A DNA stretch of 32,000 bases from Trichodesmium erythraeum IMS101 (GTDB lineage: Bacteria; Cyanobacteriota; Cyanobacteriia; Cyanobacteriales; Microcoleaceae), in assembly GCF_000014265.1 (NCBI RefSeq), contig NC_008312.1, positions 1,710,001 through 1,742,000 of the forward strand, in the 5' to 3' direction. A program made the position numbers and the translations under genes. Position 1 is the first letter of the stretch. The number at the start of each line of letters is the position of its first letter. A model generated the notes under the pieces. That model did no database searches. It saw nothing but the letters and a program-made list of their open reading frames with translations, and was not told the DNA's origin. Below, piece after piece: positions 5,547 to 29,338 of the stretch.

Positions 5547-5566
5547 CTCACACCATTTGGTGTGAG
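5547..5566 (-). other. Perfect 8-bp stem / 4-nt loop hairpin in the spacer between the 1316-aa and 1107-aa genes
   Basis: CTCACACC attt GGTGTGAG. No U-tract follows on the minus strand, so it is more likely an RNA stability or processing element than a terminator. Confidence 0.4.
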
Positions 5567-5602
5567 GCTCAATAGCGACTTCAGCTAAATAGAATAGAAA
5601 GG

Positions 5603-5617
5603 TAGCCCAGAGGGCTA
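5603..5617 (-). terminator. Weak candidate intrinsic terminator just after the 1316-aa gene stop
   Basis: The minus strand reads TAGCCC tct GGGCTA followed by CCTTTCTATTCTATTT. The stem is only 6 bp. Confidence 0.3.
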
Positions 5618-5630
5618 GCCCACAAGTGAG

Positions 5631-13065: not shown

Positions 13066-13074
13066 AACATAGAT

Positions 13075-13106
13075 GATCCTAGACAAGCTACAAAATATCT
13101 AGGATC
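13075..13106 (+). terminator. Hairpin after glmM (9-bp stem), possible terminator
   Basis: GATCCTAGA (13075-13083) pairs with TCTAGGATC (13098-13106) around a 14-nt loop. It is followed by an A-run rather than a T-run, so terminator function is doubtful. Confidence 0.3.
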
Positions 13107-13361
13107 TCAAAAAAATCAGGAGTGTGCAGATAGCAAAAATATTTGCTATTCAAGCCAATGAATATAATATCATAAAAGTCAGAAAATAGTAAAAAAAAAT
13201 GATATATATTTTGAGTATTATGATAACGTTAAAAATTTATGGGCAGAATATTAACTTTCTATCTAAGCAAGTAAATATTGAAACGGGTTTTCAGTGAATC
13301 TTTTGCAGTTAATGATGAAAAATATCTAGCTTGATCTAGTTTTCAAGAAACTGACTCCAAA

Positions 13362-14966
13362 ATGCCAAAAAAACAAAAGTCTCAAAAGAAATTAAAAAAG
13401 AAAGGCAAACCTGCTACTCCCCAGATTAGCAAAAAGAAATTAGCTGCTAGGAAGCGCAAACGAGCCAAACAAATTCAGCAATTTATTGGTTCCTTGGCAA
13501 CTTATGGTGGTCTTGGTGCCATCATTGGTCTTGTATTATTTTTTGTTGCAGAACCAAAAATAGGCCTTGCTGGTGGTTTTGGTCTGGCAGTTTTAGCTCT
13601 TTCTTTTAAATATCCAATGTTGGGACTTTGGGGATTTCTAATGTATTTGCCCTTTGCTGGTACTGTTACTTACTGGGTAGGTGACGGAGGTCCTATATTT
13701 CAGCTAGCCAAAGATGGGTTTTATATTCCTGCAATCATTGCTATTAGTTTGTGGTGCAAAAAGACAGGAAATCCATTCATTATTCCCAAATCAATAAAAA
13801 ATCCCCTGTATGCTTTATTGGGCTTGTGTCTCATAACTTTATTCTTAGTTAATGGTGTACAACACTTTAACCCTCCCCAACCAGGAGATAAGGCAATTCC
13901 TATGGGAATATTGGGACTCAAAGTCATGATCGGCTACTTACCTCTGATCACGGGGGCTTATTATCAACTCAAAAGTAAAAAAGAGTTATTATTTGTTGCC
14001 CGTCTGACACTAATACTAGCTATTATCTGTTGCTTACTAACTATCGTACAATACCAATACCTTTCTTCTGGTAAGTGTAACGGTACTAGGGGTCAAACTG
14101 GAGACGCACTATTTAAGGCAAGCTTAGAAGCTAAATGTTTGGTAGGAGGTGCTCTAGTATTTAGTCCTAGTCAAGGCATGATTCGTTTACCAGGTACTTT
14201 TGTTGCACCTTGGCAGTGGGGATGGTTCTTGATTTCTAATGCTGCGTTTACCTTTGCAGTTGCTTTTAGTGACCCTTCTTCCCTCTGGCGAATGGGAGGG
14301 TTATTTGGTATGGCAGTAGTTTTTATTAATGCAGCTATTAGCGGTCAAAGAATTGCTTTAGCTTTAGTTCCCACAACAACAATAATACTCTTAATCTTAA
14401 CAGGTCAGCTAGCTAACTTTAAACGGTTGATACCCATTGGAGCTGGACTAGCTGTTATACTAGGAGGTCTAATAGTATCTAATCCCGTAATTGTTCAAGA
14501 GCGGATAAATAGTTTTGTTGGTCGCTGGAATGCTTCACCGCCAACTGCTTTTATTTCAGAACAATTTGAGCAGTCTAATCATGCACAAAAAGGGTTTTTT
14601 GGTATCGGTCTTGGACGGGCTACTAATTCAGCCCGAGTTTTTGGTAAAACTAAATTAATTGAAACTTATTATCCTAAGTTAATCTATGAAATAGGACCTA
14701 TAGGCACAATAGCAATGTTAGTTCTATTAACAAATATTACTGTTAGTACTTTTAAAGCTTATCGCTCAGTTAAAGATAAAAACATGCGCAGTTTAGGTGC
14801 AAGCTATTGGGTTTTTGTTCTCATAATTAGTTATAACACTTATTATTACCCTCTTGATGTAGATCCAGTTGCAGTTTATTACTGGTATTTTGCTGGAGTC
14901 ATTATGAAACTGCCAGAAATTGATAAAATTGAACAGATAAAACTTAAAGAAGCTGAGGAAAATTGA
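13362..14966 (+). CDS. Polytopic membrane protein, O-antigen ligase/polymerase (Wzy_C)-like, with a Lys/Arg-rich N-terminus
   Basis: 534-aa ORF with about 10 or more hydrophobic segments and a basic N-terminal tail (MPKKQKSQKKLKKKGKP...). It sits beside glycosyltransferase genes. The family assignment is by context and topology only. Confidence 0.5.
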   Translation: MPKKQKSQKKLKKKGKPATPQISKKKLAARKRKRAKQIQQFIGSLATYGGLGAIIGLVLFFVAEPKIGLAGGFGLAVLALSFKYPMLGLWGFLMYLPFAGTVTYWVGDGGPIFQLAKDGFYIPAIIAISLWCKKTGNPFIIPKSIKNPLYALLGLCLITLFLVNGVQHFNPPQPGDKAIPMGILGLKVMIGYLPLITGAYYQLKSKKELLFVARLTLILAIICCLLTIVQYQYLSSGKCNGTRGQTGDALFKASLEAKCLVGGALVFSPSQGMIRLPGTFVAPWQWGWFLISNAAFTFAVAFSDPSSLWRMGGLFGMAVVFINAAISGQRIALALVPTTTIILLILTGQLANFKRLIPIGAGLAVILGGLIVSNPVIVQERINSFVGRWNASPPTAFISEQFEQSNHAQKGFFGIGLGRATNSARVFGKTKLIETYYPKLIYEIGPIGTIAMLVLLTNITVSTFKAYRSVKDKNMRSLGASYWVFVLIISYNTYYYPLDVDPVAVYYWYFAGVIMKLPEIDKIEQIKLKEAEEN

Positions 14967-15762
14967 GTTTATTCAATAATAAATTTGTGGAAATTAATTT
15001 TGTAAATTATTAAATTTCTCAAATTCATCAAGATTATTTCAGCCCTTTTTTTGTTTTACTATATATTTTCTATTATATGTTTTAAACATAGCATATTTTT
15101 TTGATTTTAGGTAGTTAAAAGAATAGATGTAATACACTTTGATCACATATTGATCCTAGATATAATATGAATTATATATTAAAAAAAAATCAAATTATAT
15201 TTCTATTATTTTGGAAATAGATTGAAACAAATTAAATTAGCTAATTAAAAGAATTGAGCAAATTTATCAAGGCTATATATTAGTTGTGATATTTTTTAGA
15301 GAGATAGATTATAATATAGCCATACATAGTATTTTTTACTATAGAACTAGTCGTTTATTTATCAATAGTATGAAAAAAAATCTATCTGATCTATATGGAA
15401 GGATTTGATATTCTATTTATGCCCTTCTTTTTTATAGTTTGTTACTTAATTTTTGAATTATTGAATCAACAACAAAAAAAAGATAGGTTGTATCTGACGA
15501 TTACCATCATTATTAGATATCTATTCATACCAAGTATATCTTATACATCAACCCCTATATTTTTTTATTCCATCCTTTAACAAAATATCTCAATCTTGAA
15601 CCATGTTTAAAAGTAATTCTTGTGATGATAATTAAAATGCTCTTACTAAGAGTTTATTATTTGCCTTGATTTTCTTGGAAAACTTTTTCAAGAAGCTAGT
15701 TGTAGAGAAAAAAACTAGCAAATATCAATAAAATTAAACTTACTTTTAAAGGATAGCAGACT

Positions 15763-16743
15763 ATGAATTTACCATCAATTTCCGTTGTTATTCCTACCTA
15801 CGGGCGGGAGGAACCTCTAATAGATACGATCGCTGATGTTATTAAACAAGACTACCCTAATTTTGAAGTTTTAGTAGTTGACCAAACTGGGACTCATAAA
15901 CCAGAAACTCAAGTTTATCTGGAAAAACAAGCTAATGCTGGTAGGATAAAATTGTTCCGCCTGACTTGGGCCAGCCTACCAGGAGCAAGGAATTATGCAG
16001 TCAGACGTTGTAGTGGCGAAATCATCCTTTTTATTGATGATGATGTACGTTTGCAAAAAGGATTTTTGGCGGCTCATGCTGGTAACTATATTGATCGCCC
16101 AGAGATAGGAGCAGTGGCAGGACGAGTATTTGATCGCATGAAATTAGGAGATTCTGGTGGAGAGTTGGAAATAGAAGATTTACCTCCAGAAGCGTCTGAC
16201 CCTGGTATTGCTTGGTATCATATAGATTTGGTACATACGGTTAAAGCTCAACGAGTCATCTCAGCAAGAGGGTGCAATATGTCATATCGCCGAGAAGTTT
16301 TTACTAAATATGGTTTGAGTTTTGATGAGCGGTTTCGTGGCAGTGCAGTAAGGGAAGAGTCTGATTTTTGTTTGAGGTTACGACGAACTGGCTATCACAT
16401 TTGGTTTGACCCAGAAGCTTCTTTAGTTCACTTGGGTGAAGAAAGTGGGGGTTGTCATGATATTTCTACAAGGTCTCTCAAATATCAAATTACTTTTTAT
16501 CACAATCACTTTTTTATGGGATTAAAAAATCTCACTCCTCATCAATGTCTGCGTTTTTTTGGCAAATTATTTGATTGTCATGTGTTGGGGAACCCCCCTT
16601 GTTACAAAAGTGGTTCTCCTATAAAAATAATTACTCGCGGCGGTTTCTATATTCTTGGTTTTTTTAGTGCTGTTCAAACAAGGATTAAATCTATTTGGGA
16701 TGACGGGCAAATTTATACAAAAAAAGTCAACACTCAAGAGTAA
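15763..16743 (+). CDS. Family 2 glycosyltransferase
   Basis: ISVVIPTYGREEPLIDTIADVIKQDYPNFEVLVVDQ and FIDDDV (the DxD region) are typical of Glycos_transf_2. AAGGA lies upstream of the ATG. Confidence 0.85.
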   Translation: MNLPSISVVIPTYGREEPLIDTIADVIKQDYPNFEVLVVDQTGTHKPETQVYLEKQANAGRIKLFRLTWASLPGARNYAVRRCSGEIILFIDDDVRLQKGFLAAHAGNYIDRPEIGAVAGRVFDRMKLGDSGGELEIEDLPPEASDPGIAWYHIDLVHTVKAQRVISARGCNMSYRREVFTKYGLSFDERFRGSAVREESDFCLRLRRTGYHIWFDPEASLVHLGEESGGCHDISTRSLKYQITFYHNHFFMGLKNLTPHQCLRFFGKLFDCHVLGNPPCYKSGSPIKIITRGGFYILGFFSAVQTRIKSIWDDGQIYTKKVNTQE

Positions 16744-16891
16744 TAATTCAAGAAACTCAAAAATTAAATAAAATTGTTTAAGAGTAGATCGCATAAGGTC
16801 GATCTTTATGGTTTTAAGCAAATACTAGAATTGTATAACCTGATTTTAGATAACAGTTTTTTTCAGCTTACTTGTAAAGATGAATTAAAAC

Positions 16892-17728
16892 TTATTTCTT
16901 AAGTTTTCTCTGTAAGGCTTTTCGAAAATATACAGTTTGCTGGAAAATCATCTGTAATTTGGATGTAGACCACAATGATTTTTTTAAATATAATTCATAT
17001 ATATTTTTCCGTTGATCAGATATCCAAAAATACCAAGGTTTTGAAGAACCAATATAATGTATAATTCTAGCATTTTTCAAAGCGATATTGTCATCAGGTT
17101 TTTGAATTTTTCTTGGGCTTAAGTCCACTTGAAAATTCCATTTCCGATCAATTATTAAGTAATTCTGTTTGATTACACGATTTAAAGCGCTTTGGTCGTG
17201 GTATGGCAGCTTATCTCTATTTTTAGTTGCAAAATCAATTACTTTTGTTGAAATTTGTTCATTTCTCCATTTTTCTAAGTTAACAACCATAACACCACTA
17301 TTAAAACCTTTACTTTTTACCAAAGTGCCAGAAAATCCTGAAGCAGCAATAAAGTAATTTTCTAGATCAATATTATATAGTTCTTCTAAGGGAGAAATTA
17401 CAACAACATCAGAATCTAAATAAAGAACTTTATCTATATGCTTAGGGAGAATTTCAGCCATTATTAATCTATAATAAGTTGCATTGGAAACATGATCAGA
17501 TACTTTTAATTTGCTAATTTTATCAAGGTTATTGATTATATATAAATGAAATGAACATTTATAATTTTTACTCAGCGTATCTAATTTTTGTTTTAGTTTT
17601 TCTTCCATAAAATTTGTGATTATATGTACATCAAAATGACTAGATAAATTATTTAATAATACAGAAGTGATTGCTACACCGAAGTGTTGTTGATAGTTTT
17701 GATCAAAACAAAATAATAGATTCATCAT
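16892..17728 (-). CDS. Family 8 glycosyltransferase (LPS galactosyl/glucosyltransferase-like)
   Basis: FDQNYQQHFGVAITSVLLNN, YYRLIMAEILPKHIDKVLYLDSDVVV, FNSGVMVVNLEKWR and HDQSALN fit the Glyco_transf_8 pattern. Confidence 0.85.
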   Translation of the reverse strand: MMNLLFCFDQNYQQHFGVAITSVLLNNLSSHFDVHIITNFMEEKLKQKLDTLSKNYKCSFHLYIINNLDKISKLKVSDHVSNATYYRLIMAEILPKHIDKVLYLDSDVVVISPLEELYNIDLENYFIAASGFSGTLVKSKGFNSGVMVVNLEKWRNEQISTKVIDFATKNRDKLPYHDQSALNRVIKQNYLIIDRKWNFQVDLSPRKIQKPDDNIALKNARIIHYIGSSKPWYFWISDQRKNIYELYLKKSLWSTSKLQMIFQQTVYFRKALQRKLKK

Positions 17729-18099
17729 TCTTCTCTTTTATGCCCTGATATTTCTATAATCATCTTATCATAATAATAAAATATTCAGGCGGTTTTAAGG
17801 TAGGAGCAAGGAGGCAGAAGGAACAATAGTTAGAGCTATTTTTTTGAAAAGTATGTGATTTGATAAGAATTTAAGATTCCTATTTTGGAGCTAGGTTATG
17901 GCCCTAGATTTTCATATATAGTTAAATTTGATTCTAACTAAGGTTTGTTGATTAAATATCTGATAAATGTCCAACTATATATATATATATCAATTTGGTT
18001 TTTTTGTCAAAAAAAATGTGTCAGCTTTTTACTCCAAACTAACTCAATTTTGAGCTACAATTCCTATAAATATATCTTCTAAATCACAAAAAAATAACT

Positions 18100-19266
18100 A
18101 TGAAAATATTAATCGCTAGCCATACCTATATTGTTGACCTTAATCGGGAAAAGTTACGAGCTTTAGCTAAACTTGAACCAGGTCTTGAAGTTAGGGTTGT
18201 TGTACCTCGTCGCTGGAATCCAAAAGGCGTACAAAGTGAAATAGTTGAAACTAAATTTATTGATGAGGGTTCTTTTAAAGTAATACCTCTTTCTAATTAT
18301 AGTCAAAATAATCAAGCTTTGCTAACTTTCGGTCCCGAACTAATTAGTTTGCTACGAAAATTTAAGCCGGATATTATTCAAGTAGAACAGGGTTCTAAAG
18401 CTTTAACTTATGCTCAATTTATTACTTTTAATAAGCTTTTAGGACTCCAGGCTAAAAATTTATTTTTTACTTGGTGGAATTTACCTTATGAACTCAAATT
18501 TCCTATTTCTTACCTAGAAAGCTATAACTTGAGAAATACTGATGGAATTGTTGCTGGAAATAAAGATGGAGAAAAAATTTTAAGAAATAAGGGATACAAA
18601 GGTCTGATTAAAGTGATGCCTCAGTTAGGAGTAGATGAAAGTTTATTTAAACCAGAACCTCAAGTAGAATTAAGAGATAGTTTAGGAATTAAAGATGATG
18701 ATTTTGTAGTTGGTTTTGTGGGTCGTTTTGTTCAGGAAAAAGGATTATTAACTTTAACTAAATCCCTAGCAGGTTTACAGGAAAAAAATTGGAAGTGCTT
18801 GTTATTGGGTAGGGGTGAATTACAAGCAACTTTGTGGGAAATAGCAACAGCATTAGGAATTAAGGAGCGTTTGATTTTTGTAGAAAGTGTTCCTCACAAC
18901 TATGTACAAAAATATATTAATTTGATGAATACTTTGGTTTTACCGTCAGAAACTACTTATAAGTTTAAAACTTTAACTTCTGTGGGTTGGAAAGAACAAT
19001 TCGGTCATGTTTTAATTGAGGCAATGGCTTGTAAGGTACCTGTAATAGGTTCTGATTCTGGAGAAATTCCTAATGTAATTGGGGATGTTGGTTTGGTTTT
19101 TCCAGAGGGAAATATTGAAGAGTTGAGGAATTGTTTAATGCAGTTAATGGAACAAAAAGAATTAGCCGAAAGTTTAGGAGAAAAAGGCTATAAAAAGGCA
19201 ATGAGTCAGTATACAAATAAGTCTTTAGCTAGGCAATTATTAAGTTTTTATCAGGAGTTGCTGTAG
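18100..19266 (+). CDS. Family 4 (group 1, GT-B) glycosyltransferase
   Basis: FVGRFVQEKG and the EX7E-type region FGHVLIEAMACKVPVIGSDSGEIPNVI. Confidence 0.85.
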   Translation: MKILIASHTYIVDLNREKLRALAKLEPGLEVRVVVPRRWNPKGVQSEIVETKFIDEGSFKVIPLSNYSQNNQALLTFGPELISLLRKFKPDIIQVEQGSKALTYAQFITFNKLLGLQAKNLFFTWWNLPYELKFPISYLESYNLRNTDGIVAGNKDGEKILRNKGYKGLIKVMPQLGVDESLFKPEPQVELRDSLGIKDDDFVVGFVGRFVQEKGLLTLTKSLAGLQEKNWKCLLLGRGELQATLWEIATALGIKERLIFVESVPHNYVQKYINLMNTLVLPSETTYKFKTLTSVGWKEQFGHVLIEAMACKVPVIGSDSGEIPNVIGDVGLVFPEGNIEELRNCLMQLMEQKELAESLGEKGYKKAMSQYTNKSLARQLLSFYQELL

Positions 19267-19587: not shown

Positions 19588-20550
19588 AAAAAGTAAAGTA
19601 TCGCCTATTGCCAAAGTTGTTTAGCCTGTCTACAAATGTTTTCTATGTAATTTTCTAATGGTGTCTCAGGAGCAAAGTGTAAACAGTGAATATTCTTTTT
19701 TTCACTATTATTGATAATACATGAAAATCACGAAATTATTGAGAATGATCAGGACTTGCACTATCAAAAATTCAAACAATTTTGGCTTATTGACTCTGGT
19801 TTTGTAGATGTCTAACAAAATTAATTGTTAATAAAATCTTAGCTGTTTGATAAGTGCTAGGTATCTCTTCACCACTGATATATTTCTATTGCGCTATAGT
19901 TAAGTTACCAGAGTTACCATGTAGTTGTCTACATCTATTTCTCGTTTTTTTTATAGGCGATCGCTTCATCCATAACCACAAATATGTCTTCCAAGTAGAT
20001 GCTACTCATAGTTAGTAAAAACTTGATATTTTTCCTGAAATGATTTCTCTAGGGTTGTCTTGAAGCCTATAATTAATTATTTAGTTGTGCTGCTCTACCA
20101 CACATTTATCAGATTTATATTTGGGGCTTCTGTTTTTTTGACGCCAACTAACTCCAGCGTTTTTAAATAAATTATAATAACTTTGACAGGAGCGATATAC
20201 TACTCCATAATACTGTTCAACGTGATCAATTAACTCTGAAATATTTATGCGTGTTTTTTGTTTTAGCCAATTCATGACAGCTTCACGTTGTTCCTTATTC
20301 AAGTATCCTGCACTACCTTTATATTTCAATTTTATACCCATTAACCCTTCTTCTCGATAACGTTTTTCCCAACGACTAATATAACTTGACTCAACACCCA
20401 GTATAGTCTGAATTTCCCGATGCTTAAATCCTTCAAACCGCATTTTTACTACTAAAGCTCGCTTTAACTCTCTGGGATCCGGATTAGTTGCTATAAAATC
20501 TTCAATTAACATAAAAACACAATGTGCTATTTTTATTTACTTTACTTTTT
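19588..20550 (-). mobile_element. Degenerate IS630-family-like element (boundaries tentative)
   Basis: 13-bp inverted repeat AAAAAGTAAAGTA (19588-19600) / TACTTTACTTTTT (20538-20550), with TA after the right end. The N-terminal HTH ORF is intact. The DDE part is recognisable only as stop-ridden fragments on the minus strand, e.g. LIVQVLIILNNFVIF (compare VILDNASIH) and HFAPETPLENYIENICRQAKQLW (compare FAPYSPELNPIE). Confidence 0.5.
20081..20512 (-). pseudogene. IS630-family transposase, N-terminal DNA-binding portion only (143-aa ORF)
   Basis: REIQTILGVESSYISRWEKRYREEGLMGIKLKYKGSAGYL...EQREAVMNWLKQKT...ISELIDHVEQYYGVVYRSCQSYYNLFKNAGVSWRQ is typical of IS630 HTH modules. No intact catalytic domain follows. 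Confidence 0.7.
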
Positions 20551-20624
20551 TATGATAACTTAATTGATATTTAAAGTTAAATGTTGCACAATACAAAAGC
20601 GATATTGTAGAATTTTATTGAATA

Positions 20625-20951
20625 ATGCATTGTCCTTATTGTCAAAGTCATAAAATAGTTAAAAATGGCCATCGTAACGGAAAACAGAGTTATTTGTGTC
20701 GTAAATGTGGCCGTCAATTTAGAGAAAACCCTTGTCCTATCGGTTATAGCTCTGAGGTTAAAGAGGCTTGTCTAAAAATGTTCCTTAGCGGCATGGGGTT
20801 TCGAGCTATTGAGAGAGCCACTGGTATTTCCCACAACAGCGTCCTTAACTGGGTACGCCGCGCAAAAGTAAATGTTTCTGATCGGAATTCTGAAGCTTCT
20901 GAAGCCGCTCAAGTTGATGGACTGCAGATTTTTGTTGACCCAAAAAAATAA
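20625..20951 (+). pseudogene. IS1-family transposase, truncated after the zinc-finger/HTH N-terminus (108 aa)
   Basis: MHCPYCQSHKIVKNGHRNGKQSYLCRKCGRQF (zinc finger) and GMGFRAIERATGISHNSVLNWVRRA (HTH). The ORF stops at ...LQIFVDPKK*, where intact IS1-type proteins continue into the catalytic domain. Confidence 0.65.
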
Positions 20952-21336
20952 CTTAGATATCAATAATTCTAAGTAGCAAAATACTAGGACTTCTGAAGTT
21001 GGTGGTAGGCGATCGCTCTCTTACCTTCACACTTATGATGCAGATAACTTCACCTCAAGGCCTATGCTATTCCCCCCTTTATCTCTCCCCAAGAGCGGAA
21101 ACCAAAAGTCAAAGGTCAAAGGTTAGAAAAAAACCATCAGTTAGGTTTCACTTTGTTCTACAAAACCTAAATTTTTCGACGTTTTGCAGCTATTTAGTAA
21201 TTTTCGTCTCCGTAGACCAGAGTAGAAACCCCCTTATGCAACCTCTATAATATACAAAATACAGAGTTTTGCCGATAGCAATGTAGTTATGAAACTACAC
21301 CACCTACCACCTACCAGCTAAAATTTACCACCTATC

Positions 21337-21413
21337 ACCTAATACCTAAAACCTAAAACCTAATACCTAATACCTAATACCTAATACCTAATACCTAAAA
21401 CCTAATACCTAAC
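21337..21413. repeat. Heptanucleotide tandem repeat, 11 units of ACCTAAT/ACCTAAA (STRR-like)
   Basis: Units were read directly from 21337 to 21413. The tract is preceded by CCACCTA CCACCTA. The CHAT gene stop (21395-21397) and its last 5 codons lie inside the tract. Confidence 0.95.
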
Positions 21414-24400
21414 TCACTGACTGACTGACATATCCACGCTCCCCAAAAATAAGGATGAGCTAATGGTTTACTCTCAATTTTTAGATTTTTTCCTAAATTT
21501 AATTCCCCTAAAATATCACTCCCTAATTTACTTTTTTGTAGTTCTCCAACTGTAATATTTCTGATATATTTCTGGGCTTTTCTTAAGGCGGCCCCTGCAC
21601 TCATTCCTGACCGTGAATCATCTAAAAATTGCTCCATTAATAACATGGTTGCTAATGTTGGTACGCTCCACAAACTCATTATTAATGTTTGATTCCCCGC
21701 AACGGCAAAGGCACGACGCAAACCGAATACTCCTTCTCCCGTTTGCACGTCTCCTAACCCGCTTTCACAGGCGATTAAAATTACTAGCTCTGTTTCCCAG
21801 AGGTCAAGCCCGGCAATATCTTGAGCAAATGCCATTGTTGGGAATTCTGGGGGGAGTTGGCCACCAGAAAGCCAGGTGTTGGCACCTGTAAAAGCGACGG
21901 CGGAACCCATCATCGGGTTTTCGATTTTTGCTTGGTGGCGGTTGGGTTTGAAGGTCTCAAAATCCATGTTATTAACTGGGGGTTTGACTGGGGTCGTCTT
22001 GAGCTGCTGTTTCACTAGAGGGGCGATCGCTCTTAACTTTTCTCTGATTTTATTATCCCTATTTTCTGAGTTTCGGTATCTTTCAATAAATGCCAGAAAC
22101 TCTTCATCCAGTAAACCATAATTTTTTTCTAATATCTCTACTTCTTTTCCCTGGGAAGAGGACAGTAACTCTTTCAACAAAGTCAGATATTTATCTTTTC
22201 TCTGGGAGTAATAACCGTGGGTGGCAACTATGAGCTGTTTGGGAGATTGACATTTGAGCAGGCGATCGGCAGTTGCCTCATTTCCCAGAAAAGGTTTGAC
22301 TCCTAACTGTTGTCCAATAGTTTTGGCAAGATCAGCGGTTGCTTTCACTCGTGGAAATGTTATCCCTGCCAGAGTACCTAACATTGGCTGAACATTCAGA
22401 CCAGAAACAGCCGGACTTTCTTTTTGTTGTGCCATATCTGGAGCATTCTGAGGCCAATCAAAGTTAGGGTCGGCCATAATTAATGGTGGGTTTGCTGTGG
22501 GTTTTGTTTTGATCCGACGCCGCAATAATTCTCGCCCAACGCTGACATAACTAATGTTGTACTCATCCTGCAATGTTGTTTTCCCATCATCTTCTGGTAA
22601 GATTTGAAATGGCACTAGGTTTAAATCACCATCGGGAGCTAATACTAGATGAGAGCAACCTGTTAATTTATCTCGCAATTTATCAAAAACTGCTTCTCGT
22701 AGTTCTTTCCCTGGTTGGGAGTCATAGATATAATGTTTTGTAGGTGTTTCTGTTTCTGTAGAATTTGGTTTATTATTCCACATATTCATCTGTTGTGGTA
22801 GTGGCCACTTTATTACTGAGTTTCGGTAAGTCGAAATTAGGCGATCGATATTTTCTGCTTCTCCTAAATCAATCATTTCTACTTCAGAAGGTTTTCCCCC
22901 AGCTAAAACAAATGCCAGATACCGGGCTTTTCCCCAACTCTTCTCCTGAACATCATAGACATCAAACTGCACAAATTCCAATAATTTTTCCCCCTCTGAT
23001 AACTCTGACGCGACTGCCCGTATGTCTCCCATTTGTTGCTGTATTTCAATTTCTGGCATTTGTTGGGTTAACTTTCTTTCTAACTCATTACATTCTTTTT
23101 GCAGTTGAGCTAACTGTTGTTTGTGAGTTTCCCGTTTTTCTGGTCGGGGTACTTCATAGGTAAGTGTTAAAAGTTGGTCGCACTTTCGCCGCCACTGTGG
23201 GAAAATTTCTTGGAGTTGGGGATAACGGCCACTGAATACGGCTTGGTTTTGAGCGGCCATGGCTGTTGCTGTTAGAGATTTCCGTTTGAGGACGAGATTT
23301 AATGCTGCTTGTTTGGCTTCTGGGGAGTGGGGGAAATGTTGGTAGACTAAGGAGAGGAATGTCTCTAGGTTAGGTCTGACTTCTTGTTTGATATGGGCGA
23401 GGCGATCGCTTTCGGAGCTAGAAGCAAAGATAGCCTGGATAGTTTTATCTTCGATTTTGCTGGCTTTGAGCATCAGTTTGAGTGCTTCCGAGTATCTCCC
23501 TTGAGATGCATATAATAAAGCTAGGTTATTGAGGCAAGAGGCACGTTGTGGATGATTCGCAGGCAGGGCGACTTTGTGGATTTCTATTGCTTGTTTGTAC
23601 AATGGTTCCGCTTCCGAGTATCTCCCTTGAGCACGATATAATTCTGCTAGGTTGTTGAGGTTGGTTGCCAGGGATGGATGATTGGCAGGCAGGGCGACTT
23701 TGTGGATTTCTATTGCTTGTTTGTACAATGGTTCCGCTTCCGAGTATCTCCCTTGAGCATGATATAATTCTGCTAGGTTGTTGAGGTTGGTTGCCAGGGA
23801 TGGATGATTGGCAGGCAGGGCGATTTTGTCGACTTCTATTGCTTGTTTGTACAATGGTTCCGCTTCCGAGTATCTCCCTTGAGCAGAATATAAAACTGCT
23901 AGGTTGTTGAGGTGGGTTGCCAGGGATGGATGATTGGCAGGCAGGGCGATTTTGTCGACTTCTATTGCTTGTTTGTACAATGGTTCCGCTTCCGAGTATC
24001 TCCCTTGAGCACGATATAATTCTGCTAGGTTGTTGAGGTTGGTTGCCAGGGATGGATGATTGGCAGGCAGGGCGATTTTGTCGACTTCTATTGCTTGTTT
24101 GTACAATGGTTCCGCTTCCGAGTATCTCCCTTGAGCACGATATAATTCTGCTAGGTTGTTGAGGTTGGTTGCCAGCTCTGGATGATTGGCAGGCAGGGCG
24201 ATATTGTCGATTTCTATTGCTTGTTTGTACAATGGTTCCGCTTCCGAGTATCTCCCTTGAGCACGATATAATTCTGCTAGGTTGTTGAGGTTGGTTGCCA
24301 GGAATGGATGATTGGCAGGCAGGGCGACTTTGTAGATTTCTATTGCTTGTTTCAACAATGGTTCCGCTTCCGAGTATCTCCCTTGAGCACGATATAAACC

Positions 24401-25918
24401 TGCTAGGTTATTGAGGCCAGAGGCACGTTGTGGATGATTGGCAGGCAGGGCGACTTTGTGGATTTCTATTGCTTGTTTGTACAATGGTTCCGCTTCCGAG
24501 TATCTCCCTTGAGATTTATATAAACCTGCTAGGTTGTTGAGGTGGGTTGCCAGGTCTGGATGATTGGCCGGCAGGGCGATCTTGTCGATTTCTATTGCTT
24601 GTTTGTACAATGGTTCCGCTTCCGAGTATCTCCCTTGAGAAGAATATAAACCTGCTAGGTTGTTGAGGTCGGTTGCCAGGGATGGATGATTGGCAGGCAG
24701 GGCGATATTGTCGATTTCTATGGCTTTTTTGAACAATGGTTCCGCTTCCGAGTATCTCCCTTGAGATTCATATAAACCTGCTAGGTTGTTGAGGTTGGTT
24801 GCCAGGGATGGATGATTCGCCGGCAGGGCGATTTTGAAGATTTCTATGGCTTGTTTGTACAATGGTTCCGCTTCCGAGTATCTCCCTTGAGCACGATATA
24901 AATTTGCTAGGTTGTTGAGGTTGGTTGCCAGGGATGGATGATTCGCCGGCAGGGCGACTTTGTGGATTTCTATGGCTTGTTTGTACAATGGTTCCGCTTC
25001 CGAGTATCTCCCTTGAGCACGATATAATTCTGCTAGGTTGTTGAGGTCTCTAGCCAGGGATGGATGATTCGCAGGCAGGGCGATATTGTCGATTTCTATT
25101 GCTTGTTTGTACAATGGTTCCGCTTCCGAGTATCTCCCTTGAGCACGATATAAATTTGCTAGGTTGTTGAGGTTGGTTGCCAGGGATGGATGATTCGCCG
25201 GCAGGGCGATTTTGAAGATTTCTATGGCTTGTTTGTACAATGGTTCCGCTTCCGAGTATCTCCCTTGAGATTCATATAAACCTGCTAGGTTGTTGAGGTT
25301 GGTTGCCAGGGATGGATGATTCGCCGGCAGGGCGATTTTGAAGATTTCTATGGCTTGTTTGTACAATGGTTCTGCTTCCGAGTATCTCCCTTGAGCACGA
25401 TATAAATTTGCTAGGTTGTTGAGGTTGGTTGCCAGGGATGGATGATTCGCCGGCAGGGCGACTTTGTGGATTTCTATGGCTTGTTTGTACAATGGTTCCG
25501 CTTCCGAGTGTCTCCCTTGAGATTCATATAATAAAGTTAGGTTGTTGAGGTTGGTTGCAACTTCGGCATGACTTTCTCCCCAGAGTTGTCGCGCTAACGT
25601 CACCCCTTGTTCGGCAATAGGTATTGCTTCATCATATTTACCGGCATTGTAGAGTTCCATTACTTGAACATCTAGCTTTTCTTTTGCCTCCATCATTTCT
25701 GCCAATTCGTTAGCCAAGCCTTGCAACCATTTTGCATTTTTCTCCCCATCTTCTACCATTTTAGCCGCCACTAACTCCATCGTTTTGACAAAGGCTGCAT
25801 CTAATAATTGAGAATTGGCGTGCAAAATTGCTTGCTCTTCCCCACTAGAGCAAGTTAATAGTTGGTCTATTAAATCTAGGCGAGCTTTAAGTTGTTCTTG
25901 AAATTGTTCTTCAGTCAT
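21395..25918 (-). CDS. TPR-repeat CHAT-domain (caspase-like) peptidase, 1507 aa
   Basis: 17 QGR[YH]SEA-containing 42-aa TPR units (kinesin-light-chain type, TPR_10/TPR_12-like). The C-terminal CHAT signatures are HLVLAPDGDLNLVPFQILP, the catalytic His in LIVATHGYY (codon 22216-22218) and the catalytic Cys in LVILIACESGLGD (codon 21767-21769). Confidence 0.9.
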   Translation of the reverse strand: MTEEQFQEQLKARLDLIDQLLTCSSGEEQAILHANSQLLDAAFVKTMELVAAKMVEDGEKNAKWLQGLANELAEMMEAKEKLDVQVMELYNAGKYDEAIPIAEQGVTLARQLWGESHAEVATNLNNLTLLYESQGRHSEAEPLYKQAIEIHKVALPANHPSLATNLNNLANLYRAQGRYSEAEPLYKQAIEIFKIALPANHPSLATNLNNLAGLYESQGRYSEAEPLYKQAIEIFKIALPANHPSLATNLNNLANLYRAQGRYSEAEPLYKQAIEIDNIALPANHPSLARDLNNLAELYRAQGRYSEAEPLYKQAIEIHKVALPANHPSLATNLNNLANLYRAQGRYSEAEPLYKQAIEIFKIALPANHPSLATNLNNLAGLYESQGRYSEAEPLFKKAIEIDNIALPANHPSLATDLNNLAGLYSSQGRYSEAEPLYKQAIEIDKIALPANHPDLATHLNNLAGLYKSQGRYSEAEPLYKQAIEIHKVALPANHPQRASGLNNLAGLYRAQGRYSEAEPLLKQAIEIYKVALPANHPFLATNLNNLAELYRAQGRYSEAEPLYKQAIEIDNIALPANHPELATNLNNLAELYRAQGRYSEAEPLYKQAIEVDKIALPANHPSLATNLNNLAELYRAQGRYSEAEPLYKQAIEVDKIALPANHPSLATHLNNLAVLYSAQGRYSEAEPLYKQAIEVDKIALPANHPSLATNLNNLAELYHAQGRYSEAEPLYKQAIEIHKVALPANHPSLATNLNNLAELYRAQGRYSEAEPLYKQAIEIHKVALPANHPQRASCLNNLALLYASQGRYSEALKLMLKASKIEDKTIQAIFASSSESDRLAHIKQEVRPNLETFLSLVYQHFPHSPEAKQAALNLVLKRKSLTATAMAAQNQAVFSGRYPQLQEIFPQWRRKCDQLLTLTYEVPRPEKRETHKQQLAQLQKECNELERKLTQQMPEIEIQQQMGDIRAVASELSEGEKLLEFVQFDVYDVQEKSWGKARYLAFVLAGGKPSEVEMIDLGEAENIDRLISTYRNSVIKWPLPQQMNMWNNKPNSTETETPTKHYIYDSQPGKELREAVFDKLRDKLTGCSHLVLAPDGDLNLVPFQILPEDDGKTTLQDEYNISYVSVGRELLRRRIKTKPTANPPLIMADPNFDWPQNAPDMAQQKESPAVSGLNVQPMLGTLAGITFPRVKATADLAKTIGQQLGVKPFLGNEATADRLLKCQSPKQLIVATHGYYSQRKDKYLTLLKELLSSSQGKEVEILEKNYGLLDEEFLAFIERYRNSENRDNKIREKLRAIAPLVKQQLKTTPVKPPVNNMDFETFKPNRHQAKIENPMMGSAVAFTGANTWLSGGQLPPEFPTMAFAQDIAGLDLWETELVILIACESGLGDVQTGEGVFGLRRAFAVAGNQTLIMSLWSVPTLATMLLMEQFLDDSRSGMSAGAALRKAQKYIRNITVGELQKSKLGSDILGELNLGKNLKIESKPLAHPYFWGAWICQSVSELGIRF
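23480..25560 (-). repeat. Array of about 17 near-identical 126-bp (42-aa TPR) units with a 504-bp higher-order repeat
   Basis: The block GCTTCCGAGTATCTCCCTTGAG...GGTTGTTGAGGTTGGTTGCCAGGGATGGATGATT recurs every 126 bp. GATGATTCGCCGGCAGGGCGACTTTGTGGATTTCTATGGC occurs at 24937 and 25441 (offset 504 = 4 units). Confidence 0.95.
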
Positions 25919-26113
25919 ATTAGTTTCTCCTTATTTGAATAACCCTATCATATCCGATCAAACACTCCCGTGGTTGTAGTTGTTCTTTTGCACCCTAATA
26001 TAGACCTCTATCCATTCAGGAAAACCAAGAAATCTTAGGGACTACTGGGAGTATCTTACTTCCATTCTTATGATATTTCAATAAGTTCAAAATTGCAACA
26101 AAAAATCCATATT

Positions 26114-26158
26114 GTTCTACATAATTCTACCTAGCTCTACCTAGTTCTACTTACCTAT
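26114..26158 (-). promoter_or_regulatory. 10-bp-phased direct repeat array TCTAC(A/C)TA x4 upstream of the CHAT gene
   Basis: TCTAC occurs at 26116, 26126, 26136 and 26146 (exact 10-bp spacing), 200-235 nt upstream of the start codon. Homologous arrays lie upstream of both paralogue genes. Confidence 0.6.
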
Positions 26159-26341
26159 ATATGATTCTAAACAAATCTATTTTGATTTTAAATAGACTTA
26201 TTTACTATTATTATTTTATCCACAAAATCTGCCTACAAAAAATTATATCTAACTCTAGTTAACTCTAAAGCCTACTATTTACATCCCTTGAAAATGCAAT
26301 TTAAAATAAAAGTATACTTTCCCAATAAATCACGGAATAAA

Positions 26342-26518
26342 ATGTCTAAACCAATTAAAATCTTATTAATTTCAATCTTTGCCGGAAGTATTTTCAGCAT
26401 ATTATCATTGAGCAATAACCAAAACAGCAAAGAAATTAGTCAAGCCCTTGAAAGTGGAGTAACTATGACATCCACCATAGCCAGTTTACTAATAAGCTTA
26501 AAAGATAGCAATGAATAG
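26342..26518 (+). CDS. Small (58 aa) single-pass membrane peptide, divergent from the CHAT gene
   Basis: MSKPIKILLISIFAGSIFSILSLSNNQNSKEISQALESGVTMTSTIASLLISLKDSNE has one clear hydrophobic helix. The track ORF starts earlier, at TTG 26288. A decayed homologous copy at 29020-29243 shows the sequence is a duplicated unit. Confidence 0.45.
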   Translation: MSKPIKILLISIFAGSIFSILSLSNNQNSKEISQALESGVTMTSTIASLLISLKDSNE

Positions 26519-26550
26519 TACTGCTCAAACTCAAAAGTCAACACCCCTGT

Positions 26551-26615
26551 TTTAGTTATAGAAAATTAGTTGTGAAACCCTATCACCAGGCACCAGCCAC
26601 CTAAAACCTAACACC
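26551..26615. repeat. Orphan copy of the gene-3'-flank block (TAGTT.TGAAACC...CACCAGGCACCAGCCACCTAAAACC.AACACC)
   Basis: Direct repeat of 26727-26805. It is also related to 21284-21335, downstream of the CHAT gene. Confidence 0.8.
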
Positions 26616-26646
26616 TATTCCTTATTTTTCAGCTACTTAAGCAACT

Positions 26647-26693
26647 TTCATGTCGCTAGACCAGAGTAGGGATGTTTCACTACGCGACATGAA
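26647..26693. repeat. Palindromic element (copy B) with a perfect 10-bp inverted repeat
   Basis: TTCATGTCGC (26647-26656) pairs with GCGACATGAA (26684-26693). The interior TAGACCAGAGTAG is also present at about 21224-21236, and GACATGAAACGC is shared with copy A at 11445-11486. Confidence 0.7.
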
Positions 26694-26726
26694 ACGCATT
26701 TTTGTGATGCAACCTCCCTACAAAGC

Positions 26727-26805
26727 TTTAGTTATAGAAACTTAGTTATGAAACCGTACCACCAGGCACCAGCCACCAGCCACCTACCACCTAAAACCCA
26801 ACACC
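26727..26805. repeat. 3'-flank block directly downstream of paralogue A
   Basis: TTTAGTTATAGAAACTTAGTTATGAAACCGTACCACCAGGCACCAGCCACCAGCCACCTACCACCTAAAACCCAACACC. This is a direct repeat of 26551-26615. Confidence 0.8.
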
Positions 26806-26813
26806 AACTACAC

Positions 26814-27599
26814 CTAAACCACATCATAAAACATATACCACAAAGTAGAGTCTGACTCAGCCTGAAAATAAGTCAAAAATTCCTGCAAATGCTTTCCCTC
26901 TAACAACAAAGGTGGTTGGTCTCCTTGTGGTAACCAACTTAACCTTGGACGTTCCTGACTGATCCCCGCTATGATCTCCTCAACCCCTGGTTTACCATCC
27001 AACCTAAAATAATCAACTGGCGCCCCCTCCATAGGTAAAGACACCACACCCGCATCAAAAATAGGCAAAGCTCCCAAAAATGAAGGAGACAAACAATAAA
27101 ACTCACCAGAAGTACCCCTTTCTAACAGAGTTAAATATCCCCGACGTTCCAACCGTACCTCAAACTTAATTTCACTATCTAGAGGCACAGTCTTAGGATA
27201 ATGAGGATCAACCGTATACATATCCATTGTGCTCATCCCTTGAAGAACAGGACCCATTTTATTAGTTGAAGTAGCCATATTTTTTAATTGATACCAGGGA
27301 TAAAGAACTTCACGGAGCCACTGTCTAGCAATATTAACTTTATCTCTTGTCGCGTCATTAAAATGACAACCTTCAACCTCCAGTTTTTTAAATATTCTCC
27401 TCAAAGCATCCCGCATAGTATTATTATGTCGTAAATTTGTTAATAAAACATCAGCCAAAGCTGCATTATTCAAATCATCATTATTTATTTTAAACCGTTC
27501 AATAAATACAAGCCTAGTGTTATCTTTAAGACTCAACTTATCAGCTACTTCTCCCAGAAAAGCAACCTCATTATTTTTGTAACTTTCTTCTGGCATCAT
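26814..27599 (-). CDS. Paralogue A: small protein with an HTH-like N-terminus and a DUF4384-like C-terminal beta domain
   Basis: The track ORF starts at TTG 27602; ATG 27599 with AAGGAA upstream is the more likely start. The N-terminal region FLGEVADKLSLKDNTRLVFIERF...LADVL...MRDALRRIFKKLEVEG resembles sigma70-region-4/LuxR-type HTH modules. The C-terminal region IKFEVRLERRGYLTLLERGTSGEFYCLSPS...SLPMEGAPVDYFRLDGKPGVEEIIAGIS fits my recollection of DUF4384 (PF14326). Confidence 0.8.
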   Translation of the reverse strand: MMPEESYKNNEVAFLGEVADKLSLKDNTRLVFIERFKINNDDLNNAALADVLLTNLRHNNTMRDALRRIFKKLEVEGCHFNDATRDKVNIARQWLREVLYPWYQLKNMATSTNKMGPVLQGMSTMDMYTVDPHYPKTVPLDSEIKFEVRLERRGYLTLLERGTSGEFYCLSPSFLGALPIFDAGVVSLPMEGAPVDYFRLDGKPGVEEIIAGISQERPRLSWLPQGDQPPLLLEGKHLQEFLTYFQAESDSTLWYMFYDVV

Positions 27600-27666
27600 C
27601 AACCATTCCTTTCTTATAGGTTCATTTATAATGATACTTCAATAAAATCAAAAAATCTACAAAAAA

Positions 27667-27711
27667 ACTACATGACTCTACATAACTCTACCTATCTCTA
27701 CCTATCTCTAA
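27667..27711 (-). promoter_or_regulatory. 10-bp-phased repeat array (ACTAC, TCTAC x3, TCTAA) upstream of paralogue A
   Basis: Pentamers start at 27667, 27677, 27687, 27697 and 27707, which is 70-110 nt upstream of the start codon. A candidate TTGATT-N15-TATAAA promoter (minus strand, 27651-27625) lies between the array and the gene. Confidence 0.6.
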
Positions 27712-27951
27712 CTAGCTGTATATCGCTTAAAATTGACTTATTTTCACTTTCAAAAGATTGATATTCTATTATTATTATCTACAAAATTTACCTTGATAAA
27801 ACTTCCAAATAATTCTCATCAAACCTATTTCCTACTTACAGCTTAGTCAAACCCATCCCACTGGACTCAAACCTAAAAAACTAACACCTAAAACCTCAAC
27901 CTCTGCTCGTACCTTACCCTTCCCTGAAACCGAGCTTCAACCCCGTGAATT

Positions 27952-27974
27952 CCCCCCTTGCCCTCCAAGGGGGG
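27952..27974 (-). terminator. GC-rich hairpin 25 nt downstream of the paralogue B stop
   Basis: CCCCCCTT gccctcc AAGGGGGG (8-bp stem, 7-nt loop). No U-tract follows on the minus strand. Confidence 0.4.
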
Positions 27975-27999
27975 GTTGACTTTGAGCTTATGTATAGCG

Positions 28000-28806
28000 C
28001 TAAACCACCTGATAATGCATGTACCATAAAGTAGAGCCTAACTCAGCCTTAAAATACATCAAAAACTCCTGTAAGTGCTCTCCCTTTAAAAGCAAAGGTA
28101 GTTGGTCCGCCGCCGGCAACCAATCTAAGTTTGGACGTTCGTGACTGATCCCTGCTATGATCTCCTCAACCCCTATTTTACCATTCAACTTAAAATGATT
28201 AACTGGTGCCCCCTCCATTGGTAACGATGCTACGCCCCCATCAAAAATAGGTGAACTTGCCAAACACGAAGGAGACAAACAATAAAATACGCCAGAAGCA
28301 CCTTTTTTTAAGAGAGTTAAATATCCCGAACGTTCCAACTGTACCTCAAACTTAACCTCACTATTGAGAGGTATAACACTGGGATAACGAGAAACAGTTT
28401 TAGACGTATCCAACTGTGTAATTCCTTGGATAACAAGACCCATTTTATCAGTAAAAGTCGCCATATCTTTTAATGCATGCCAGGGATAAATTATTTCACG
28501 CAACCACCGTTTAGCAATTTTAACCTTGTCTCTTTTTGCTCCCTCAAAATCACAACCTTCAGTCTCCAGTTTTTTAAATATTGTTTTCAAAGAGTCCCGC
28601 AAAATAATATCTGATGTTGCTTTTTTGCTAGCATTCTGTAATAAATTACTTGATAAAACATCAGCCAGTTTTTGATTATTCAAATCATCATTATCTATTT
28701 TAAACCGCTCCGTAAACACCAGCCTGGTTTTATCTTTAACCATCAATTTATCAGCTATTTTGTTCAGAAAAATAGCCTCATTATTTTTATAACTTTCCTC
28801 TAGCAT
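28000..28806 (-). CDS. Paralogue B: small protein with an HTH-like N-terminus and a DUF4384-like C-terminus
   Basis: The track ORF extends to 28875. The alignment with paralogue A starts at MLEESYKNNE (ATG 28806), which has AAGGAA about 10 nt upstream. The proteins are collinear and by eye about two-thirds identical. B has an insertion of about 8 aa (ASKKATSD) in the HTH-like region. Confidence 0.8.
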   Translation of the reverse strand: MLEESYKNNEAIFLNKIADKLMVKDKTRLVFTERFKIDNDDLNNQKLADVLSSNLLQNASKKATSDIILRDSLKTIFKKLETEGCDFEGAKRDKVKIAKRWLREIIYPWHALKDMATFTDKMGLVIQGITQLDTSKTVSRYPSVIPLNSEVKFEVQLERSGYLTLLKKGASGVFYCLSPSCLASSPIFDGGVASLPMEGAPVNHFKLNGKIGVEEIIAGISHERPNLDWLPAADQLPLLLKGEHLQEFLMYFKAELGSTLWYMHYQVV

Positions 28807-28876
28807 AATCAAATTTTCCTTCTTGATAACTTTGTCTATAATTATATTTCTACAAAATTGAAATTGACACAACAAT

Positions 28877-28911
28877 TATACACAATTCTACATAAACTTA
28901 CATAGGGATGC
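28877..28911 (-). promoter_or_regulatory. Degenerate copy of the 10-bp-phased array upstream of paralogue B
   Basis: TATAC at 28877, TCTAC at 28887 and CTTAC at 28897, each followed by A(C/T)A. A TATAAT on the minus strand (28846-28841) lies between the array and the start. Confidence 0.45.
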
Positions 28912-29019
28912 ATAACTGTATTTTGATTTAAAACAATATTTTTTATATCATTATTCATTATTTGTACTTTGATCAAAAACTTATTTAACTCTAACTACTA
29001 CTATTTACATATCCTAAAT

Positions 29020-29243
29020 TTTGAAATTAAATTATAGTATATTTACCCAAGAATTAAGATCATAAAACCTATAAATTAATCAATTTTTATTAATTTTAAT
29101 CTTTAGTGGAAGTATTTTCAGCATTTTCTCAGTCAATAATAATCAAAACTCAAAATAAATTAGTCAAGCTGTTGAGCAGATAAAATAACTATAACATCTA
29201 ACATGACTAGTTTATTAAGAATTTTAAAAGACGCCAATAAAAG
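29020..29243 (+). pseudogene. Decayed copy of the small membrane-peptide gene
   Basis: The corresponding frame reads KPIN*SIFINFNL*WKYFQHFLSQ**SKLKIN*SSC*ADKITITSNMTSLLRILKDANK. The intact copy reads KPIKILLISIFAGSIFSILSLSNNQNSKEISQALESGVTMTSTIASLLISLKDSNE. Confidence 0.6.
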
Positions 29244-29338
29244 TTTTCCAAATATTAATTATTCAGCCTTTGTAGCGCAGTTCAAGAGCTTAAGAAAATG
29301 TAGTCAACTCTTAATAAAATATTCTTATCTCATCCTTT

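Follow-up and report, generated by a model that had tools for sequence, protein, structure and literature searches.

Why should three neighbouring genes, one of them unrelated to the other two, be preceded by the same DNA? The question arises in a 32,000-nucleotide stretch of Trichodesmium erythraeum IMS101 (contig NC_008312.1, positions 1,710,001 to 1,742,000), hereafter the window, in which the gene for a TPR-CHAT protease lies beside the genes of two small DUF4384 proteins, paralogues A and B. A preliminary description of the window saw here three tandem cassettes on one regulatory scaffold, and the three consecutive minus-strand open reading frames (ORFs) are found where it placed them (Table 1). 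The explanation developed below, to which we assign a probability of roughly 55%, is that the locus encodes an autoregulating transcription factor that controls the CHAT protease and a small membrane peptide, and that these genes form a conserved module, partly duplicated in the window.

Paralogues A and B share 66.5% identity across an alignment of 260 residues, and the ratio of nonsynonymous to synonymous substitution rates (dN/dS) between them is ~0.51. Both are unrelated to the protease in sequence, as the preliminary description had held. Its assignment of DUF4384 to both small proteins is also borne out: the C-terminal half matches Pfam DUF4384 (PF14326) above the gathering score of 27 in paralogue A (2.3e-6, 28.1 bits) and in paralogue B (3.1e-8, 34.0 bits). 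An AlphaFold2 model of paralogue B, with a mean predicted local distance difference test (pLDDT) score of 83, shows five helices followed by a beta-sandwich. Foldseek with the full-length paralogue returned only weak, generic Ig-like beta-sandwich matches (RhoGDI, MD-1, MSP), and neither the paralogues nor the peptide match any NCBIfam or PADLOC model. Homologues of the paralogues are few, forming 28 clusters from Trichodesmium, Okeania and marine filamentous cyanobacteria.

The N-terminal ~110 amino acids of the window paralogues, here called the N-domain, have no match in Pfam, NCBIfam or the PDB, and PDB sequence searches with two N-domain profiles returned noise only. Modeled by itself with AlphaFold2, the domain forms five helices with confidence (pLDDT 86). 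Searched with a profile, 1.84 billion representative proteins yielded 79 representatives with an N-domain, ~34 of which have the N-domain+DUF4384 architecture. Among the others are proteins in which the domain precedes a NACHT or NB-ARC NTPase that additionally carries HEAT or pentapeptide repeats or a NACHT C-terminal domain (NCAB1/NCC-H), and proteins in which only pentapeptide repeats follow it. In one 545-amino-acid protein encoded outside the window (P0033), the N-domain replaces the output domain, a winged helix, behind an OmpR-type receiver. This receiver and N-domain arrangement recalls the receiver and Myb layout of plant type-B response regulators.

Phased repeats accompany the N-domain whatever it is fused to. 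At all family loci examined, 2-6 units with a 10-bp period lie upstream of the N-domain gene, starting 82-125 nt before the start codon. Each DUF4384-type member examined is preceded by two to six phased GTAGA units, and the GTAGA unit is found in the Trichodesmium, Okeania and Aerosakkonema group as well as at L121 and L128, where protein identity has fallen to 37-39%. Other architectures have related units: (A/G)TAGA x5 precedes an N-domain+NB-ARC gene (L130), AATAGA x4-5 precedes an N-domain+NACHT-HEAT gene (L132), and a diverged family member, P0078, has TGTCGA x5. As a control, 78 ORFs of at least 100 amino acids from 11 cyanobacterial loci were scanned for a phased TAGA chain of at least three units within 220 nt upstream. 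Such a chain precedes 11 ORFs, all of them N-domain genes, and none of the other 67 (0/67, with two units at most). Because the array follows the N-domain across architectures and its core changes in the diverged subfamily, the N-domain is read here as a putative autoregulating, Myb-like DNA-binding module.

The link to Myb comes from P0078, which matches Pfam Myb_DNA-bind_6 at 3e-6, its 27.7 bits exceeding the gathering score of 22.9. Against the PDB, the same protein matches v-Myb and c-Myb at 0.003-0.3 (v-Myb 0.0028), over the stretch from helix 2 through the turn to helix 3. Judged by position in the family and by inspection, the counterpart in paralogue A of the Myb-aligned stretch of P0078 (WNDIASQLNLTDKQLRDRW) is LADVLLTNLRHNNTMRDAL. 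An insertion of ~8 residues distinguishes the N-domain of paralogue B from that of A; mapped on the Myb match, it falls between helices 2 and 3, at the Myb-aligned stretch. These matches suggest that the N-domain may be a Myb-like helix-turn-helix. The preliminary description had called the small proteins HTH-like and named sigma70_r4/LuxR models as a check; no such profile matches the window proteins at E<=0.1 or any of 47 family members at E<=5.

Within the window, homologous DNA does precede all three genes, as first described. The regions upstream of the CHAT gene (26060-26225) and of paralogue A (27621-27786) are 72% identical over 166 nt, and in intergenic alignments the region upstream of paralogue B is colinear with the ancestral peptide-regulator spacer of other species. 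Tandem Repeats Finder reports period-10 arrays at 26114-26150 and 27668-27714. The 10-bp-phased array had been claimed for all three genes; it is well preserved before the CHAT gene and paralogue A and present but decayed before paralogue B, where one perfect GTAGA is accompanied by two imperfect copies. A scan of the 32-kb window for the two-unit pattern TGTAGAN4TGTAGA, allowing up to two mismatches, gave 13 matches against 3.1 expected, a count reached in none of 100 shuffles, and 9 of the 13 fall in the three upstream regions. The array before the CHAT gene abuts a -35/-10-like pair (TTGCAA at 26098-26093 and TATCAT at 26075-26070, by consensus match only), and a promoter-like GTGTCA-18-TATAAT lies downstream of the array of paralogue B. 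The consensus scan for promoters finds many AT-rich matches across the window, and it serves only as a hint. An Rfam scan of the whole window found no RNA family, which rules out the flanks as a known riboswitch or small RNA.

Searching 596 Gb of genomes for the exact three-unit pattern gave 114 stretches, mostly unrelated tandem repeats in non-cyanobacteria. Three of the nine cyanobacterial matches belong to the module, and the rest are simple repeats or one unrelated site. No Trichodesmium record was matched, the genome of the window evidently not being among the scanned representatives. The enrichment in the window, this rarity among genomes and the 0/67 control genes together contradict a generic dispersed repeat as the source of the upstream arrays. 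In Limnoraphis, a perfect GTAGAACTAG x3 array lies directly upstream of a gene for a 703-amino-acid amidinotransferase-type protein (L029 3758-3782, L064 3603-3627), in an 8-kb locus that contains no N-domain gene. The array may have arisen by chance, or it may mark a distant target of a regulator of this kind.

The genes of the window also belong together elsewhere. A module made up of the peptide, the array, the N-domain+DUF4384 gene and TPR-CHAT recurs in at least nine independent loci from filamentous (Oscillatoriales-type) cyanobacteria, including Trichodesmium, Okeania, Aerosakkonema and relatives (Table 1). The order and orientation (divergent peptide, regulator, TPR-CHAT) are identical at every locus with enough flank, so that the linkage of DUF4384 homologues to TPR-CHAT genes, which the preliminary description had named as a check, is conserved wherever it can be assessed. 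A locus from a Trichodesmium metagenome-assembled genome (L006) shares synteny with the window across tldD, rnc and both paralogues, and its orthologue of paralogue A is 99.6% identical. In the Aerosakkonema locus, identity is 39% for the regulator and 41% for CHAT, and a separate 77-amino-acid membrane ORF takes the place of the peptide. At L124-L126, the regulator and TPR-CHAT are ~140-160 nt apart. At a distant locus (L129), the regulator is followed after 33 nt by a gene whose product begins with the N-terminal domain of the window's TPR-CHAT protein. A metagenome scan found five loci only, all close relatives. Two side observations concern module loci. PIN toxin-antitoxin pairs are located between the regulator and TPR-CHAT in two genomes (L004 7850-8902, L122 5284-5893), and in Okeania sp. 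SIO3B5 a second, giant CHAT protein (L122 11736-13078; 3973 amino acids, cut by the end of the locus) is encoded 2 kb downstream of TPR-CHAT.

The small membrane peptide of the preliminary description is a conserved 58-amino-acid plus-strand gene. It contains one hydrophobic 19-residue stretch, read directly from the sequence, and is 72-100% identical to the peptides at the same position in L002, L003, L004, L005 and L006, with further copies in L018, L122, L124 and L127. Upstream of paralogue B lies a peptide pseudogene remnant that is 80% identical to positions 26358-26451 of the peptide gene over 94 nt.

This remnant bears on how the shared scaffold arose. The upstream region of paralogue B is the colinear orthologue of the ancestral spacer, and those of paralogue A and the CHAT gene are further copies with an extra block in common. 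A marine metagenome contig (L127 1-1320) carries the 3' end of a regulator gene, the peptide gene, an array of six perfect ATGTAGAG units and a pseudogenised further regulator copy. By sequence comparison, this contig shows an intermediate in the duplication history, with an array copy number that differs between strains. The simplest history is a tandem duplication of a [peptide-array-regulator] unit, after which the first peptide copy decayed, the second peptide copy was lost and the third regulator copy was deleted. Deletion of this third regulator copy left an array and promoter copy directly before the CHAT gene. The shared scaffold is therefore one copied regulatory element and not as three separate recruitments: the scaffold of the preliminary description is real, whereas its three cassettes are not an independent design but the product of tandem duplication of one unit.

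The protease matches Pfam TPR_12 at 3e-244 and CHAT (PF12770) at 7.3e-45 (154 bits, cut-off 24). The match above the gathering score, together with the caspase-type motifs ATHG (His) and IACESG (Cys), confirms the CHAT identity first proposed. Both dyad residues, H404 and C554, are unchanged in seven of seven orthologues, and the CHAT domain is predicted to be an intact caspase-fold protease. At the DNA level, the TPR units form a 126-nt repeat in 16.5 copies of 91% identity, with variation concentrated at unit positions 8, 12, 18, 21 and 40. A 17-unit TPR array with so few variable positions has a pattern that looks typical of diversifying sensors.

Table 1. Features of the module in the window, with the loci and proteins used for comparison. 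Positions are those of the window; aa, amino acids.
Feature	Position	Strand	Details
TPR-CHAT protease gene	21395-25918	-	1507 aa
Protease, N-terminal helical domain	~aa 1-85		
Protease, TPR array	aa 112-825; nt 23444-25585		17 tandem 42-aa units
Protease, C-terminal linker and CHAT domain	nt 21395-23443		
CHAT 5' leader	25919-26059	-	final ~75 nt homologous to the ancestral regulator-to-CHAT spacer (alignment with L124, L125, L126)
Phased array before CHAT	26106-26151	-	4-5 copies of (A/G/T)GTAGA(A/G)NN, 10-bp period
58-aa small membrane peptide gene	26345-26518	+	MSKPIKILLISIFAGSIFSILSL...; divergent from array
Paralogue A gene	26814-27599/27602	-	261/262 aa
Paralogue A, architecture	aa 1-~105 (N-domain)		helical N-domain, then DUF4384 beta-sandwich
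Phased array before paralogue A	27656-27714	-	5-6 GTAGAG-type copies, 10-bp period
Paralogue B gene	28000-28806	-	268 aa from ATG; TTG-extended ORF reaches 28875
Decayed array before paralogue B	28849-28902	-	ATGTAAGTTT ATGTAGAATT GTGTATAATT
Peptide pseudogene remnant	29069-29175	+	upstream of B; no start codon, in-frame stops
3' flank of CHAT	21130-21412	-	heptamer tandem repeats and one copy of the repeat element found after A
3' flank of paralogue A	26519-26813	-	two partial repeat-element copies and CCACCAG heptamers
Module loci			L006, L002/L003, L004, L018 (Okeania KiyG1), L122 (Okeania SIO3B5), L124, L125, L126, L015 (Aerosakkonema)
N-domain on NB-ARC/NACHT with repeats, or behind a receiver			P0032, P0083, P0088, P0033

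How might such a module work? The Myb-like helix-turn-helix of the N-domain would bind DNA, probably by oligomerizing along one face of the double helix, at the three to six direct (G/T)GTAGA(A/G) repeats of 10-bp period that start ~80-125 nt upstream of its own start codon. The arrays lie next to -35/-10-like consensus sites, and the regulator would control its own promoter and that of the divergent peptide gene. In the ancestral arrangement, TPR-CHAT lies ~140-160 nt downstream of the regulator; comparison of the loci shows that duplication and loss then placed an array with its promoter before the CHAT leader. In the lineage of the window, both paralogues, the peptide and the protease thus carry one type of putative operator, and the regulator would control the protease directly.

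The remaining steps are proposed by analogy with type III-E CRISPR systems, whose effector arm comprises the TPR-CHAT protease Csx29, its cleavage substrate Csx30, and Csx31 and RpoE. One group of Csx30 proteins has a C-terminal DUF4384, a domain that frequently occurs in fusion with proteases (Kato et al., bioRxiv 10.1101/2022.08.17.504292). This pairing makes the DUF4384 regulator of the module a candidate substrate or partner of its protease. The TPR array would sense a partner or ligand, upon which CHAT would cleave a target; the regulator would be the prime candidate, coupling proteolysis to transcription, and the protease may in this way cleave the regulator that controls it. The membrane peptide could be the output or effector, and the role of the whole could be that of a stress, conflict or cell-fate switch.

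Several observations weigh against the autoregulator explanation. No window protein matches any helix-turn-helix model directly, and a Foldseek search of the N-domain model against the PDB found no match with E<1, so that the Myb relationship hangs on one family member. Helical N-terminal domains of NACHT proteins are often protein–protein adaptors and not DNA binders. The array of paralogue B has decayed while the gene itself is intact, and 10-bp tandem arrays, here of 2-6 copies, can grow by slippage. For the protease, searches of the PDB including the Csx29 structures with the CHAT region (phmmer and a 7-sequence profile) found no chain at E<=0.05. A T-N/D-K-M-G-P motif between the domains was rejected as a Csx30-like cleavage site, being confined to close relatives and not family-wide. 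PADLOC-DB v2 has no matching system: only a generic TPR model matches the protease, and none matches the paralogues or the peptide.

Some of these points would fit an N-domain that is a protein–protein adaptor of the effector-associated or death-like type, in which case the DUF4384 proteins would link CHAT to NACHT/NB-ARC sensors encoded elsewhere and another factor, such as a response regulator, would bind the arrays. A domain that heads both NACHT/NB-ARC proteins and small "effector-side" proteins has an adaptor-like distribution, the window proteins lack a helix-turn-helix model or structure match, and one family member has a very weak match to bDLD3, a bacterial death-like domain (E=0.23). 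We nevertheless regard an adaptor as unlikely. The phased array accompanies the N-domain irrespective of its fusion partner, and the core shifts from TGTAGA to TGTCGA in the diverged subfamily, as expected of a factor and its own site; the same subfamily supplies the above-threshold Myb_DNA-bind_6 match. The N-domain also stands in the output position of a response regulator, and no module locus encodes a STAND NTPase. An even less attractive view, which we consider very improbable, takes the shared flanks as functionless repeats, produced by 10-bp slippage upstream and dispersed downstream, that were carried along by segmental duplication between uncoupled neighbours. The genomes of Trichodesmium are rich in repeats (10.1101/2022.04.20.488952), the arrays range from two to six copies, the other cyanobacterial matches to the array pattern are plain tandem repeats, and the 3' blocks and heptamers do resemble generic repeats. 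Against it, the arrays keep their position, phase and core across proteins down to 37-39% identity and across varied architectures, they are absent from control genes, and the gene order is kept at no fewer than nine loci. This view is viable for the 3' elements only.

Another possibility concerns purpose: in filamentous cyanobacteria, the module may serve development or housekeeping as a proteolytic regulator, much like HetF, with no part in conflict, abortive infection or cell death. This is possible, with odds well short of even. HetF, a CHAT protease of Anabaena heterocyst development, provides a precedent; the Trichodesmium module has housekeeping genes as neighbours (on one side, rnc and tldD) and is syntenic between strains, PADLOC finds no defence system, and no phage or mobile-element hallmarks occur inside the module. 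A housekeeping role accords less well with a genomic context that varies between genera and with the PIN toxin-antitoxin pairs inside the module in L004 and L122. The near-identical TPR repeats with few variable positions resemble those of diversifying sensors, the regulator shows both duplication and decay, and the family is patchy and narrow.

Set beside known systems, the module emerges as a variation on CHAT-protease systems with a newly recognizable regulator domain and operator; a full-text literature search (DUF4384, CHAT, TPR-CHAT, Trichodesmium/cyanobacteria) found no description of it. It resembles type III-E Craspase in its genetic coupling of a TPR-CHAT protease with a small protein of two domains, with DUF4384 at the C-terminus in one Csx30 group, and in having a small membrane-associated partner and, as proposed here, a change in transcription as the outcome. 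Unlike Craspase, the module comes without Cas7-11/gRAMP, a CRISPR array, RpoE or Csx31, its N-domain, putatively DNA-binding and paired with an operator of its own, is not anti-sigma-like, and its TPR part is a 17-unit KLC-type array. The window contains no CRISPR-like repeats, its large neighbouring ORFs have no RAMP/Cas matches, and no STAND NTPase is present in the window or at the module loci, in agreement with the absence of CRISPR array, gRAMP and STAND NTPase noted at the outset.

STAND-NTPase conflict systems of multicellular bacteria, reportedly described by Kaur, Burroughs, Iyer and Aravind in 2020, use TPR/CHAT or caspase effectors. The module shares with them the CHAT effector, long near-identical repeats with few variable positions, confinement to filamentous cyanobacteria and the presence of its N-terminal domain on NACHT/NB-ARC proteins as well. 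It differs in that its loci lack an NTPase and that its N-domain appears to act like a DNA binder with a cognate array and not like an adaptor. HetF is likewise a CHAT protease of a filamentous cyanobacterium acting on a regulatory pathway; it is not known to have a 17-unit TPR array or a linked DUF4384 regulator or peptide. MalT and AfsR/SARP are STAND-class transcription regulators, and plant type-B ARR proteins are Myb-type response regulators. N-domain proteins follow the same plan, with a presumed DNA-binding domain fused to NB-ARC/NACHT and repeats or placed behind a receiver, but the N-domain belongs to a different family that lacks annotation, and it has direct repeats phased at 10 bp as its operators. 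Cyanobacteria also contain orthocaspase-DUF4384 fusions, in which DUF4384 accompanies a caspase-fold protease (PMC7475262). The module repeats this association with DUF4384 on a separate protein that has a regulatory N-domain, and with a protease of the CHAT type in place of Peptidase_C14.

As a circuit, the module can be tested: its operator is defined, and it supplies a candidate transcription factor together with a protease and a small membrane peptide. It also suggests that the TPR-CHAT and DUF4384 pairing of type III-E CRISPR exists as a free-standing unit. The phased TAGA arrays further give sequence-based access to the unannotated N-domain, with which many NACHT/NB-ARC proteins of cyanobacteria begin; such proteins could be reinterpreted as transcription regulators. 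A broader proposal is tentative, and we would call it rather doubtful: the N-domain would be an undescribed DNA-binding family that acts on phased TAGA repeats and is plugged onto DUF4384, NACHT, NB-ARC or receiver modules, and with TPR-CHAT and the peptide it would form a CRISPR-independent counterpart of Csx29-Csx30, in which cleavage rewires transcription and releases a membrane-active peptide as a growth-arrest or cell-death switch. The collapse of Trichodesmium blooms by programmed cell death is biogeochemically important, and to our knowledge no regulator of Trichodesmium caspase-like proteases has been reported. If the broader proposal were true, bloom-forming Trichodesmium would gain a protease-gated switch of this kind.

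The 3' flanks add little. Tracts of CCTAAAA/CCACCTA type had been reported after all three genes, and heptamer runs do exist: ACCTAAT x 11 and ACCACCT x 6 at 21299-21412 after the CHAT gene, CCACCAG at 26759-26791 after paralogue A, and a weak tract at 27876-27896 after paralogue B. The blocks GTTTCATAACTA, GAGGTTGCAT and TACTCTGGTCTA, described as common to the 3' sides of paralogue A and the CHAT gene, are found at both, and the repeat element after paralogue A reads GTTTCAYAACTA...GAGGTTGCAT...TACTCTGGTCTA...TAGCTG. Within the DNA examined, the 3' heptamers and the repeat element found after paralogue A and CHAT occur only at those sites. The elements fold with modest z-scores (-1.5 to -2.6) and have no T-tract terminators on the gene strand, so that their folding is not interpretable. 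The tracts and the repeat element are treated as uninformative on co-regulation, and this part of the earlier claim is not retained. A G/C-rich perfect palindrome, CCCCCCCTTGGAGGGCAAGGGGGG, is located at 27951-27975, just 3' of paralogue B, and CCCTCCTTGGGG-type hairpins likewise lie 3' of the CHAT gene (~21070-21100) and of the regulator gene in L127. On sequence, these may represent a recurrent 3' element or terminator.

The module is flanked by the RNase III (rnc) and TldD genes on one side and by insertion sequence (IS) fragments and an hps glycosyltransferase cluster on the other. The IS remnants, at 20081-20951 directly 3' of the CHAT gene, comprise an HTH_23/HTH_32 transposase N-terminal fragment and an InsA-like zinc-ribbon ORF, and they mark a rearranged edge of the module. 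Two very large neighbouring ORFs of 1107 and 1316 amino acids occupy 2154-9581 on the minus strand. The 1316-amino-acid ORF has no match in Pfam, NCBIfam, PADLOC or the PDB; as a possible Cas7-11 it is unsupported, given the absence of RAMP/Cas matches. The 1107-amino-acid ORF encodes a DUF6603 protein with an internal 216-nt tandem duplication at 4209-4643. Between these ORFs and the IS remnants, at 11596-19266, lies a polysaccharide cluster with no relation to the module, which encodes a phosphoglucomutase, the hormogonium polysaccharide protein HpsL (NCBIfam, 832 bits) and three glycosyltransferases (GT2, GT8 and GT1).

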